This document shows, one piece after another, positions 19,552 to 28,359 of a stretch of 38,941 bases of DNA. The notes under the pieces were generated by a model, which did no database searches, was not told the origin of the DNA, and saw only the letters and a list, made by a program, of their open reading frames with translations. The position numbers and the translations under genes were made by a program. Each line of letters opens with the position of its first letter. The first letter of the stretch is position 1. This stretch comes from Parcubacteria group bacterium (lineage in GTDB: Bacteria > Patescibacteriota > Minisyncoccia > Phycocordibacterales > UBA2135), in NCBI GenBank assembly GCA_016180525.1, contig JACPBB010000004.1:1-38941 (forward strand), read 5' to 3'.

Positions 19552-19624
19552 GCCGCCTTAGCTCAGTTGGTAGAGCAACGGTTTTGTAAACCGTAGGTCC
19601 GGAGTTCGAGTCTCCGAGGCGGCT
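19552..19624 (+). tRNA. tRNA-Thr(UGU), CCA not encoded
   Basis: Acceptor GCCGCCT/AGGCGGC, D arm GCTC...GAGC, anticodon arm ACGGT-TTTGTAA-ACCGT, T loop GTTCGAGTC. Confidence 0.97.
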
Positions 19625-23574: not shown

Positions 23575-24816
23575 TTACTTTCTTTCTTTGATTTCTTTTT
23601 TGATTTTGGAGAGGAGGTTATCTATCACAAGTATTTCTTTTTTCCCGCTTCGGCCTTCAAGGGTTGTCGTGTTTGACTCTACTTCTTTATCCCCCACAAC
23701 GGCCAAGTAGGGTATTTTTTGCTGTTTGGCGGCTCTAATTTTTTTACCAAGCGTTTCATTTTCATTATAAAATTCAACCCTAATGCCATCGGCGTGCAAC
23801 TTCTCATATACTTCTTTGGCAAACTTTTCATGCTTTTCTCCGATGGGGAGAATCGCAACTTGAACGGGGGAGAGCCAGAGGGGAAAAGCGCCTCCATAAT
23901 GCTCAATAAGAAACGCCATGATGCGTTCAATGGCACCAATTGAAGAGCGGTGCACGACAAAAGCGCGTTTTTTGCTTCCGTCTTCTCCAATATAGGAAAG
24001 GTCAAAACGTTCTGGCATGCAAAAATCATATTGCACGGTAAATGCCGTATCTTCTTTACCGTTTGCATTTTTCATCTGAACATCAATTTTTGGTCCGTAG
24101 AATGCCGCTTCATTTTTTACTTCAACAAATTTATTTTTTTTCTTTTCAAGTAGATCACGAAGTAATGATTCGCCTTTTTCCCACGCCTCATCATTTTTAT
24201 AATATTTTTCCGTATTTGTCCTGTCTCCAAGCGAGAGGCGATAGTGATATTCTTTTCCATATTGCAGACCAAAAACGTGAGTGACATATTCAATCAAATC
24301 AAGCGCCCCGCCAATTTCTTCCACAGCCTCCTCTTCACTTTTGCAAATAATGTGCGCATCGGCAAGAGAAAACGTGCGGACTCGCTGAAGCCCCATCAAT
24401 TCTCCGGATTGTTCATAGCGATATAGTTTTGCAATTTCTGCGGTACGAATAGGAAGCTCGCGGTAACTATGCGGTTTTCGTAAGTAGAGCTGAAAATGAT
24501 GCGGGCACGTCATCGGCCGGAGCATGAATTTTTCATCATCAATCTCAATCGGCGCGTACATTGAGTCCTGATAGTGCGGATAGTGGCCAGATTTAATATA
24601 TAAATCAAGTTTTGCGATATCGGGAGTATAGACATGCTGATATCCGCGGCGAATTTCCTCATCAACAATAAATCGCTCAAGCTCGCGTCGTATCGCCGCG
24701 CCCTTGTGCGTAAAAAGCGGCAGTCCTTTGCCGACCGTCTCGTCAATATAGTAAAGGTCTAACTGTTTCCCTAAAATTTTATGGTCTCTCTCCGAATGAG
24801 ATTCATCATTATTCAT
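23575..24816 (-). CDS. thrS: Threonine--tRNA ligase lacking N-terminal TGS/editing domains
   Basis: Starts just before RDHKILG; RPMTCPHH, YRYEQSG, DAHI, FYGPKID, HRSSIGAIER, FPLWLSP. Confidence 0.97.
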   Translation of the reverse strand: MNNDESHSERDHKILGKQLDLYYIDETVGKGLPLFTHKGAAIRRELERFIVDEEIRRGYQHVYTPDIAKLDLYIKSGHYPHYQDSMYAPIEIDDEKFMLRPMTCPHHFQLYLRKPHSYRELPIRTAEIAKLYRYEQSGELMGLQRVRTFSLADAHIICKSEEEAVEEIGGALDLIEYVTHVFGLQYGKEYHYRLSLGDRTNTEKYYKNDEAWEKGESLLRDLLEKKKNKFVEVKNEAAFYGPKIDVQMKNANGKEDTAFTVQYDFCMPERFDLSYIGEDGSKKRAFVVHRSSIGAIERIMAFLIEHYGGAFPLWLSPVQVAILPIGEKHEKFAKEVYEKLHADGIRVEFYNENETLGKKIRAAKQQKIPYLAVVGDKEVESNTTTLEGRSGKKEILVIDNLLSKIKKEIKERK

Positions 24817-24864
24817 ACACTCTATAATAACAAAAGAGTTCTAATTATTTTAATCTAAAAATGC

Positions 24865-24893
24865 TTGACAGAACAATTACAATATGCTAGAAT
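24865..24893 (+). promoter_or_regulatory. Near-consensus sigma70 promoter with no downstream ORF
   Basis: TTGACA (24865-70), N17, TAGAAT (24888-93), with TGC extended -10. Confidence 0.8.
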
Positions 24894-24900
24894 AAATTCT

Positions 24901-25082
24901 GAACAAGGCGACAAGGTACGTCATTTCCGCATCACTTGAGATGTAGAAAGTGGCCGAGCTGTCATTTCACCTCCAAAGCGGCGAGGGAGACGGTCCCAGA
25001 AACGCTTGCGATTGAGTGGTCAAATGACTAGCTTTGTTTGAAGGCTCCTGGCATTACTTAAAACGCAGGGGCCTTTCTATTT
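24901..25082 (+). ncRNA. Candidate structured small RNA (unassigned family)
   Basis: Lies between the promoter and a terminator; GC-richer than its flanks; nested pairings GAACAAGGC/GCTTTGTTT, GTCATTT/AAATGAC, GCTGTC/GACGGT, CCTC/GAGG. Confidence 0.6.
25041..25082 (+). terminator. Intrinsic terminator
   Basis: AAGGCTCCTG (25041-50) / CAGGGGCCTT (25066-75), then TCTATTT. Confidence 0.65.
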
Positions 25083-25137
25083 GTCATTTTTTATCTTTCT
25101 TTTATACCTCTAATTCGCACGAATATGTCCTAATAAC

Positions 25138-25172
25138 AAATCTGAAATCTTAAATCATACATCGTAAATCTC
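25138..25172 (-). repeat. Heptamer tandem repeat directly after the dnaE stop
   Basis: Plus strand AAATCTG AAATCTT AAATCAT ACATCGT AAATCTC. Confidence 0.75.
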
Positions 25173-28100
25173 ATAGTTCTTTAACTTTTTCAATAATAAA
25201 ACTCGGCACTCCTTTTCTGTGCGATGTTTTTCCTCTTACTAAAATAGTTTTTTCCGTTTGTAAAAAATCTTTATATTCGTTAAATGCTCGGGGAAATACC
25301 ACTGTTTCTATGCTGTCGCCCAAGTCCGCGATTTTCAAAAACGCCATTTTTTCACCTTTTGCCGTTAAGATTGTTTTAACTTCCTCTACAATGCCGCCAA
25401 TAACGGTTGTTAACCCTTCACCCAATTTTTTTACCTTTTTAATATCAAGTTCAAGGCGTTTAAATTTTTCTTTATGTTCCAAAAGCGGATGTCCTGAAAT
25501 ATAAAGACCGAGTAATTCTTTTTCCCACGATAATTTTTCTTTTTGAGAAACAGGAGAAACTTCTTTGAGCCGCAGTTTTGGAACAGATTCTTGATTGCCC
25601 ATTAAGTTAAAGAGAGAATCTTGTTTTCGCGCATCCTTTTTTTGCTCTCGATTATACGCGAGCGCTTCTTCAGTATTCCCAAGCATTTGTTCTCTATTGC
25701 CAAACGCATCCATCGCCCCGCATTTAATGAGCGACTCCAGCGATTTTTTATTGAGATTTTTATGTTGAATACGCTCTAAAAAGTCAGCAAATGACTTAAA
25801 TTTCCCTCGCTCTTCTCGCTCGGCGATAATGGCGTTTCCAATTTCGTTACCAAAATTTTTTATGGAGTACAGTCCAAATCTGATCTTGTCGCCTGACAGA
25901 TTTTTAATAATAGTAAAATCTCCAAAGCTTTCATTTACATCGGGAGGAAGTACGGAGATGTTAAGTCGCACACACTCGGTAATCGCTTCGGCAATTTTTT
26001 CAACATCTCCAGCATCAGCATTGAGAATTGCCGCCATATATTCAGTGGGAAAATGTGCTTTCATATACGCGGTTTGATACGCAAATTTTCCATAACTTGC
26101 CGCATGTGCCTTATTAAACCCGTAGCCCTGAAATGGCTCAAAAAGCTTCCACATTGCCTCTGCCGCGTCTTTACTCATGCCTCCGTGTTTCTGACAACCC
26201 TCAACAAACATAATATGCTGTCGCGCCATCTCTTCGGGGATTTTCTTTCCGACTGCTTTTCTAAATTTATCAACCTCGCCCCAACTATACCCGGCGACTT
26301 CAATCGCGGTCATCAATAGGTCGTCCTGATATACTAAAACACCATATGTTGTATCAAGAAAATTTTTCATTTTAGGATGAGTATAAGTAACAGGTTTGCT
26401 GCCATGCTTTCTGGCAATATATTCATTAATGTTATCCATAGGTCCCGGACGATAAAGTGCTATCATAACATTGATGTCATGAATAGTGGTAGGCTTTAAT
26501 TCTTTCAAATACTGCGTCATACCAGAGCCGTTGAGCTGGAAAAGCCCCATTGTTTCTCCGCGCGCTAATTTTACAAATGTTTCTTTGTCATCAAGCGGAA
26601 TTCGTTCAATATCTATGTCCACTCCGTGGAATTTTTTAGCAAGCCGTATGGAATTACTCAAGATAGTAAGATTTTTAATTCCCAGAAAATCCAATTTCAA
26701 AAGCCCCACATCCTCTATTGCGTGCATATCATATTGAGTAATGACGCCTTTTTCGTGTGGGTCGTATTGGAGTGGTACCGTCTCCATAAGTGGATAAGGA
26801 GCTATGACCACTCCTGCCGCATGAACAGAGACGTGGCGCGCACAACCCTCAAGCCGTTTCGCGAGGTCAACAATTTCTCTTACTTCCTCTTCTTTTTCAT
26901 ACAGCTCACGCAGTTCGGGTGTTGTTTCAAGCGCTCGCTCGATGGTCATTGGAAACCCTTGCGAACCCATAGGAATAAGTTTTGCGATTCTATCGCCAAC
27001 AATATATGGTTTCCCTAAAGAACGGGCGACATCGCGCACTGCGCCTCGTGCCATCATGGTGCCGTATGTGCCGATTTGCGCGACGTGTGTTTCTCCGTAT
27101 TTTTGTTTTGCATACTGTATTACCTCATCCCGCCTTGTATCTTCAAAATCCATGTCAATATCAGGAGCAGAGGGCCGATGAGGGTTTAAAAATCTCTCAA
27201 ACGGAAGTTTATATTCAATAGGATTTACGTTAGTGATACCAAGCAGATACGAGACAAAAGAGCCAGCGGCAGAACCTCTGGTATTCGTTAAGATGTTATT
27301 TTCTCGAGAAAAACGAAGGAGGTCGGCAACGACTAAAAAGTAGGGTGAAAATTGTTTGGTTTTTATAATATCCAGCTCATAGGCAATGCGGGCAATATGT
27401 TCTTCTGTTTTAGATAAATTGCGAAACGAAAGCCCTTCGTATGTTAATCGTTCAAGCTCTTTGTCGTGCGTAGTCTCGGCACTAACTTTAAAATCAGGAA
27501 AAATCCAGCTGCCAAGCGAAAGCTCAATCTCGCACATATCCGCAATTTTTTTTGTGTTTTCTATTGCTTCTGGAATATCTTTAAAATTGTTCCATGCTGT
27601 TTCTGAATCTATAAAATGAAAATCATGTCCCGCAAACGTAAGCCGCTTTTCATCTCCAATATCGGTGTTCGTCTGGATTGCGATAAGCGTATCGTGCGCT
27701 CGCGCGTCATCTTCATGTAGATAATGCGAGTCATGTGTTGCGACAAGAGGAACATTGAATTTTTCCCCAAGTGCGATTGTTTGTTTTCGCACTTCATTAA
27801 GACCCTCTATGTCCGGGTGATGCATAATTTCAAGAAAATAATTTTCTTTTCCAAATATTTCTTGATGCTCTGTTATGACTTTCTCCGCCCCTTCCACGTT
27901 TTTATTTCGGAGAGCCCGTGAAAGTTCACTTCCAAAACATCCGGAAAGACAAATGAGCCCTTCACTATGCGCGCGAAGCAGTTCTTTGTCCATTCGCGGT
28001 TTGTAATAATACCCTTCAAGGTGCGAGAGGGTGACAAGCTTAATTAAATTTTTATATCCCGTATTATTTTTTGCCAAAAGCGTCAGGTGAAAACGCTTAT

Positions 28101-28359
28101 TATCAATTCCCGGCTGTTTATCATGCCGTGTTCGTTTTGCAATATACGCCTCAACGCCTATAATCGGTTTAATTCCTGCCTTTTTACATTCCTTATAAAA
28201 TTGAATGGCTCCATAAAGTGCTCCGTGGTCAGTTAAGGCAAGCGCTGGCATGCCGTAAGATTTCGTAAGCGAGACCATCTCCGTAATTTTTGACAGACCG
28301 TCTAAGAGCGAGTAGTGGCTATGCGTATGGAGATGAATAAAAGGAGTTTTTGAACCCAT
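25171..28359 (-). CDS. dnaE: DNA polymerase III alpha subunit
   Basis: PHP domain HLHTHSHYSLLDG, RGSAAGS, PDIDMDF, KLDFLG, YGFNKAHAA, C-terminal OB fold. Confidence 0.98.
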   Translation of the reverse strand: MGSKTPFIHLHTHSHYSLLDGLSKITEMVSLTKSYGMPALALTDHGALYGAIQFYKECKKAGIKPIIGVEAYIAKRTRHDKQPGIDNKRFHLTLLAKNNTGYKNLIKLVTLSHLEGYYYKPRMDKELLRAHSEGLICLSGCFGSELSRALRNKNVEGAEKVITEHQEIFGKENYFLEIMHHPDIEGLNEVRKQTIALGEKFNVPLVATHDSHYLHEDDARAHDTLIAIQTNTDIGDEKRLTFAGHDFHFIDSETAWNNFKDIPEAIENTKKIADMCEIELSLGSWIFPDFKVSAETTHDKELERLTYEGLSFRNLSKTEEHIARIAYELDIIKTKQFSPYFLVVADLLRFSRENNILTNTRGSAAGSFVSYLLGITNVNPIEYKLPFERFLNPHRPSAPDIDMDFEDTRRDEVIQYAKQKYGETHVAQIGTYGTMMARGAVRDVARSLGKPYIVGDRIAKLIPMGSQGFPMTIERALETTPELRELYEKEEEVREIVDLAKRLEGCARHVSVHAAGVVIAPYPLMETVPLQYDPHEKGVITQYDMHAIEDVGLLKLDFLGIKNLTILSNSIRLAKKFHGVDIDIERIPLDDKETFVKLARGETMGLFQLNGSGMTQYLKELKPTTIHDINVMIALYRPGPMDNINEYIARKHGSKPVTYTHPKMKNFLDTTYGVLVYQDDLLMTAIEVAGYSWGEVDKFRKAVGKKIPEEMARQHIMFVEGCQKHGGMSKDAAEAMWKLFEPFQGYGFNKAHAASYGKFAYQTAYMKAHFPTEYMAAILNADAGDVEKIAEAITECVRLNISVLPPDVNESFGDFTIIKNLSGDKIRFGLYSIKNFGNEIGNAIIAEREERGKFKSFADFLERIQHKNLNKKSLESLIKCGAMDAFGNREQMLGNTEEALAYNREQKKDARKQDSLFNLMGNQESVPKLRLKEVSPVSQKEKLSWEKELLGLYISGHPLLEHKEKFKRLELDIKKVKKLGEGLTTVIGGIVEEVKTILTAKGEKMAFLKIADLGDSIETVVFPRAFNEYKDFLQTEKTILVRGKTSHRKGVPSFIIEKVKEL

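Follow-up and report, generated by a model that had tools for sequence, protein, structure and literature searches.

Orphan genes for bacterial small RNAs (sRNAs), i.e., young genes confined to a species or strain, consist of 50-300 nt that hold no ORF, placed between a free sigma-70 promoter and a Rho-independent terminator. The unit described here, from the dnaE-thrS gap of a tiny groundwater bacterium, resembles such genes in having its own consensus promoter, ~185 nt without a credible ORF and a 3' end like an intrinsic terminator. It is also intergenic, between convergent and divergent genes, and unconserved beyond the species. Unlike them, it is predicted from sequence alone, and the promoter block in front of it serves small protein genes in relatives. 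6S RNAs (RF00013) are conserved housekeeping RNAs, which the unit resembles in length, in its paired ends and in having a strong promoter of its own, whereas it has no match to the 6S model, the rod with a bubble is a disfavored fold, and there is no conservation even within the genus.

The window, i.e., the whole 38,941-nt stretch of DNA that was analyzed, is contig C4 of a genome of 945,633 bases in five contigs which is rated 97% complete. The unit occupies the 354-nt gap between dnaE and thrS (Table 1). We consider it probable that this is a promoter-to-terminator cassette without a credible ORF, lodged in a variable dnaE-thrS cargo slot of a Paceibacteria (CPR) genome and species-specific in the sense that it is not in the genomes searched. 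It was introduced in the initial annotation as an orphan transcription unit in a GC-richer tract, and the promoter, the tract without a credible ORF and the terminator do follow one another in the order and orientation given. Positions 24900-25049 have a GC content of 0.54, and the flanks have 0.23-0.34; this is not exceptional, as the gap ranks 31st when 186 intergenic regions are ordered by peak GC. The tract is spanned by DNA contigs of runs X1, X3, and X5, for which no difference is listed within 24812-25114, and thus no population variation is seen there. Those of X5, which comes from a separate study, are two short low-depth contigs, one exact over 24837-24987 and the other with one difference over 25075-25225.

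Table 1. Features of the dnaE-thrS gap and its two flanking genes (window coordinates)
Feature	Position	Strand	Details
thrS	23575-24816	-	Class II synthetase core and anticodon-binding domain
thrS promoter, TTAAAA-18-TATTAT with TG	24824-24853	-	-10 box TATTAT, 24829-24824
Direct repeat TAATAACAAA (10 nt), copy 1	24825-24834	+	Flanks unit
Sigma-70-type promoter, TTGACA-17-TAGAAT, extended -10 (TG)	24865-24893	+	-35 box 24865-24870, -10 box 24888-24893
Predicted RNA core	24901-25039	+	P1 (24901-24909 with 25031-25039) closes a three-way junction; pair probabilities 0.89-0.99
Predicted hairpin P2	24920-24955	+	In MFE and centroid folds
31-aa TTG frame, rejected as a gene	24936-25031	+	No SD box; enclosing 42-aa frame without homologue
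Predicted long imperfect hairpin P3	24961-25028	+	GTCATTT with AAATGAC at base (inverted repeat I1); contains CACCTCC and GAGGGAG
Intrinsic-terminator-like hairpin and U-rich tail	25040-25095	+	11-bp stem 25040-25076, 15-nt loop, -17.0 kcal/mol
Direct repeat TAATAACAAA (10 nt), copy 2	25131-25140	+	Flanks unit
Heptamer array AAATCTG, 2.7 copies	25138-25156	+	Adjoins dnaE stop; flank kept in L140, L101, G001, and G004
dnaE	25171-28359	-	Far side of gap from thrS

The surroundings of the unit carry most of its interest. We compared 126 thrS loci, of which 75 came from metagenomes and 51 from species genomes. In 63 of them, dnaE is found upstream of thrS and in the same orientation, and after removal of 12 duplicates, these gave 51 distinct gaps of 0 to 2112 nt, ten of them under 150 nt. 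The same-genus genome G001, whose ThrS is 84% identical, has a gap of ~105 nt, in which dnaE has a terminator and a divergent unit is missing, and the other same-family gaps measure ~66 nt (G002), ~56 nt (G004), and 661 nt (G007). By a crude count, 39 of the 41 relatives' gaps of at least 150 nt contain an ORF of at least 40 aa on either strand; the two that do not are 165 and 211 nt long, and the 354-nt gap of the window is the sole one above 260 nt without such an ORF. Fourteen proteins of 47-175 aa are predicted as slot cargo, and only L097/L100 and L045/L046/L118 are mutually related. On these comparisons, the dnaE-thrS gap is a slot of turning-over content among close relatives.

What persists in the slot is its thrS-side edge. 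A promoter scoring at least 10/12 stands near thrS in the same orientation in seven of the 41 relatives' gaps, and L140 seems to have one as well, though masked bases interrupt it. The block that extends from the start of thrS up to the -35 box aligns in the window, L140, and L100, including ATTATTTTAAT (ATTTTCTTAAT in L140). The -35 flank ATGCTTGAC is kept in L140, reads TCCTTGAC in L100, and is carried further along the slot in G007/L097. Past the -10 box, the sequences diverge completely. With the promoter block shared and the tract in this species only, the unit most likely represents a young orphan small RNA, or else imported DNA of which a transcribed remnant persists, and in either case has no conserved role. 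Its RNA may have arisen as a by-product when cargo turned over, not as a selected gene, and an undescribed sRNA is possible. As one more unconserved promoter-to-terminator unit, known from a single sequence, it matters little; its modest value comes from its setting, a slot in which the cargo behind a conserved divergent promoter keeps changing, unrelated small proteins in the relatives and a non-coding tract here. This suggests that such slots in Parcubacteria are a regular site of gain and loss of small genes, perhaps of small RNAs too.

Covarying homologues in CPR genomes, which the initial annotation had envisaged, did not emerge, as the homologue searches of 60, 400, and 149 relatives and of the 126 thrS loci came back empty. 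BLASTN with 231 nt against 60 relatives gave a best non-self E of 0.006 over 26 nt, and in 400 genomes of the order, a 196-nt query gave eight non-self matches of 18-28 nt (E = 0.005-0.01). Nothing was found by nhmmer and blastn in the thrS loci, and tblastx against the relatives' loci returned nothing beyond the shared promoter region. A covariance model (R1) made from the single sequence and its centroid fold reached a best E of 0.64 in 149 relatives and one 44-nt partial match, outside the slot, in 45 syntenic loci. Phages yielded two 24-nt matches (E = 0.8) and plasmids none; in viral contigs, one of two 19-mers was without a match, and the other had one exact, non-extending match. Three apparent leads were rejected. 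Short matches to 24997-25020 (13-17 nt) in same-family genomes, considered as a conserved box, sit in unrelated coding sequences and were put down to chance, as was a 26-nt match in G046 and G246, which encodes the UvrD-type helicase motif FTNKAA(R/K)EM and does not extend. As a possible remnant of the relatives' cargo, the tract was also compared by local DNA alignment with 42 slot sequences, where the best z was 4.94 (score 25, ~13 nt, L045) and all others were below 2.5.

With the same BLASTN, a different structured RNA of this genome is recovered in four of 10 same-family genomes (G001, G003, G002, and G007), with 86% identity over 160 nt in the same-genus G001 (E = 3e-47), and the method therefore works at this distance. 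This RNA candidate (G000:C1:95784-96034, minus strand; L215:135-385) lies just upstream of ruvB (C1:96069-97085), folds at -87.4 kcal/mol (z = -5.96, with none of 200 shuffles as good), and has no meaningful Rfam match. The four copies are 74-86% identical to it, and RNAalifold gives 58 consensus pairs, 11 of them kept through changes on both sides, with a nearly invariant 17-bp closing stem.

If the cassette is read as proposed, RNA polymerase with the primary sigma factor would start ~7 nt past TAGAAT, near 24900 (we infer a start at about 24900-24901), and ~185 nt would be transcribed before the stop at the hairpin and U-tract. The RNA would fold as a closing stem, two hairpins, and the terminator hairpin. 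The promoter would be older than its cargo, since its block is common to relatives and drives unrelated small protein genes there.

Should the RNA act at all, the sole partner visible in the sequence would be the antisense strand. The minus strand of the gap has no hairpin-plus-U-tract, i.e., no dnaE terminator, and read-through transcripts from dnaE into thrS would thus be fully complementary to the unit RNA. The -10 box of thrS ends 7 nt short of the ATG at 24816, which leaves no thrS leader in the gap, and a -10 block beside the ATG (~7 nt from it) is kept in L097, L100, L077, G001, and G002. Probably, thrS is leaderless. A T-box or other thrS leader was rejected as an identity of the unit, as neither strand has a T-box match and the promoter and U-tract of the unit are on the strand opposite to thrS. 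We can picture a newborn regulatory RNA, left by cargo turnover behind an ancestral divergent promoter and made in quantity, which, as a perfect antisense of 185 nt and a barrier of convergent transcription, would uncouple the leaderless thrS with its own promoter from dnaE read-through, the GTCATTT/AAATGAC boxes being parts of the fold or factor-binding sites. We regard this picture as an unlikely one.

An sRNA with a selected structure would act differently, in trans or as a switch, with the GTCATTT/AAATGAC boxes toggling between folds or CACCUCC pairing with ribosome-binding sites of mRNAs. The intact expression signals fit such a role, as do the anti-SD-like CACCTCC and the SD-like GAGGGAG in P3 and the boxes themselves. 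Of the nine copies of GTCATTT or its complement in the window (9.28 expected), four fall within 24920-25089, a 170-nt stretch for which the window-wide rate predicts about 0.04, and this cluster could mark a function, in RNA pairing or as protein-binding sites, that our main reading misses. The repeat reported in the initial annotation, GTCATTTC, is indeed found at 24920 and 24961. The two alternative folds described with it are not supported as a switch: the pairings exist in the sequence, but their predicted occupancy is negligible, and no gene lies downstream on the plus strand for a cis switch to control. CACCUCC, moreover, is mostly paired in the MFE structure.

The stability of the fold is likewise ordinary for this genome. 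The MFE of 24900-25085 is -62.8 kcal/mol (z = -2.66, two of 200 shuffles as good), while the minus strand of the whole unit folds with z = -3.19. For the core (24900-25040), z is -2.54 on the plus and -2.19 on the minus strand, and six of 70 random 141-mers from the same genome reach -2.54 or lower. With ~9% of random genomic pieces folding as well, the predicted fold does not go beyond chance, and selection on structure is unsupported by these models. Together with the lack of conservation, this makes a functional RNA of the trans-acting or switch-like kind improbable, and we keep to the young orphan RNA or remnant without a conserved role.

A more sceptical position is that there is no transcription unit. 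The promoter-like site would then be what is left of the conserved divergent promoter, the hairpin would have arisen by chance or as a structural element of inserted DNA, and no discrete RNA would accumulate. The quality of the promoter argues against this. As first described, it is a strong consensus promoter pointing away from thrS (TTGACA-17-TAGAAT with TG); it scores 11/12, the highest of six promoter-like sites in 24000-26000. Genome-wide, 80 sites score at least 11/12, and 60 of these lie outside ORFs of at least 100 aa, although such ORFs cover 72-89% of each contig, which indicates that consensus promoters are really used in this genome. Judged by this extragenic enrichment, the unit has a promoter of its own which is unlikely to be due to chance and very likely fires. 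The great majority of such sites precede genes, and most of the 60 extragenic ones have an SD box and a start codon within about 30-90 nt, which the promoter of the unit does not. Strong promoters without an SD-preceded ORF are few and otherwise include the 16S leader and an apparent rplJ leader. Two more, both scoring 12/12, are at G000:C2:14729-14900 (plus strand) and G000:C3:175872-175600 (minus strand), the former followed by a short GC-rich hairpin with a T-run; from their sequences, these may be other small non-coding units.

The 3' end is more equivocal. A terminator closing the tract had been claimed, and an 11-bp hairpin of -17 kcal/mol does stand ~185 nt downstream of the promoter, followed by TATTTGTCATTTTTT, a U-rich tail, in an orientation that works for the plus strand only. 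Its 15-nt loop is atypical, however, and the hairpin was missed by the standard terminator scan because that scan covers loops of 3-8 nt. Weighing both ends of the cassette, we find the absence of a transcription unit distinctly unlikely, and a discrete transcript remains our preferred reading.

The cargo might also code for a very small protein, in the 31-aa TTG frame or in another short frame, in keeping with the relatives, in whose slots ORFs of 47-175 aa follow an SD box. The two longest frames from start to stop codon within the tract both begin with TTG and measure 31 aa (24936-25031) and 39 aa (25034-25153, running through the terminator). No start codon in the tract, those of these two frames included, is preceded by an SD box, while most strong promoters of this genome precede an SD box and a start codon. 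The description of the tract as ORF-free is thus borne out to the extent that no credible ORF is present, and on present sequence evidence, the unit has neither an SD-preceded start nor a protein homologue, as in orphan sRNA genes. A 42-aa open frame (24903-25031), without an ATG start, is the best case for coding, as it aligns end to end with the L045 protein (p of ~0.02). The p values for the other two members of that family, however, are 0.12 and 0.37; the profile of the three proteins scores the frame at 1.2 bits when the best of 300 shuffles reaches 6.7 bits, and in the genome of the window, it has no match at E <= 0.1. Membership of the frame in the L045/L046/L118 family was therefore rejected, and it has no homologue among proteins of 23-74 aa either. 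Taken together, this makes a small protein very unlikely and leaves the non-coding reading in place.

The family itself consists of 53-63-aa proteins encoded on the minus strand in the dnaE-thrS slot of three relatives (L045:1270-1428, L046:604-792, and L118:2179-2361). They end in YRP(C/L)(Q/L)EWS and have an apparent conserved 5'-UTR hairpin and an SD box. For the family, the L118 protein included, neither a word-indexed protein search nor the 400 genomes of the order gave homologues; in the latter, the profile gave partial noise matches only (best, 7e-4).

Concerning known RNA families, no Rfam family matches the unit. At gathering score, nothing was found in the window but tRNA-Thr (19552-19624), and at E <= 10, the 421 nt of 24780-25200 gave six noise matches to eukaryotic or organellar families, far below their cut-offs. 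The initial annotation had seen no signature of tRNA, tmRNA, RNase P, SRP, or T-box, with which Rfam and genome searches agree; tmRNA (C1:233127-233535) and RNase P RNA (C1:350659-351013, 92.6 bits) are found elsewhere in the genome.

A divergent 6S-like RNA had been put forward as well; it would be a rod with a central bubble, mimicking open promoter DNA and sequestering RNA polymerase holoenzyme. The proposed pairing of 24901-24909 with 25031-25039 is present in the MFE structure, and the helices of the rod consist entirely of standard pairs, but the MFE is -45.4 kcal/mol, and the rod, at -30.4 kcal/mol (-36.8 when these helices are enforced on refolding), falls short of it by 8.6-15 kcal/mol. 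Its pair probabilities are 0.000-0.006, and the favored prediction is the three-way junction. The length of ~185 nt, the strong promoter, the paired 5' and 3' ends, and a 6S role not visibly filled in a genome where RF00013 has no match (the model does match in seven of 14 named genomes used as a positive control) speak for the idea, which is nonetheless barely credible, since RF00013 fails to match 24780-25200 even at E <= 10, no copy exists in the same-genus genome or the 400 genomes of the order, nor, by covariance model, in 149 relatives, and a conserved structured RNA of this family of bacteria sits elsewhere, beside ruvB.

SRP RNA (RF00169, RF01854) has no match in the genome, nor in any of 61 genomes of the order, this one included. 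The genome also has no Ffh M domain (SRP_SPB), no SRP54-type GTPase, no TIGR00959 match, and no FtsY, and the DTAGR motif is absent from its 2945 open frames of at least 80 aa. Without Ffh and FtsY, SRP RNA is excluded as the identity of the unit. More widely, PF00448 gives only weak matches (at most 24 bits, to the first half of the domain) in six of 31 genomes of the order, and none of 151 genomes sampled across the phylum has an Ffh M domain. SRP subunits are absent from many CPR bacteria, as an earlier report states (PMC8080830); the absence as such is already known from there, and the breadth seen here is striking.

The two edges of the slot were also inspected for traces of insertion. 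The copies of TAATAACAAA that flank the unit, for which chance occurrence is roughly estimated at ~0.2, are only a hint of an insertion scar. Flanking direct repeats were rejected as a general scar of this slot, as head-tail repeats of at least 9 nt occur in three of 16 slots (the window, L101, and L148) and are inconsistent. A deletion between the two TAATAACAAA copies would produce a gap resembling the short one of G004.

On the dnaE side, the flank AATCTGAAATCT... is common to the window and relatives, and the heptamer array lies at this end of the slot. Arrays of three to six tandem heptamers occur at many places in this genome, the TRF output containing 350 arrays of period 7 (e.g., C1:173113-173191, C1:267432-267504, C3:66782-66860, C3:69140-69218, and C5:34257-34327). 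They often come in pairs ~15 nt apart, with units that look like reverse complements, as in TAGGCTT... followed by CCTAGCG... or AATTTCA... followed by AATCTGA....
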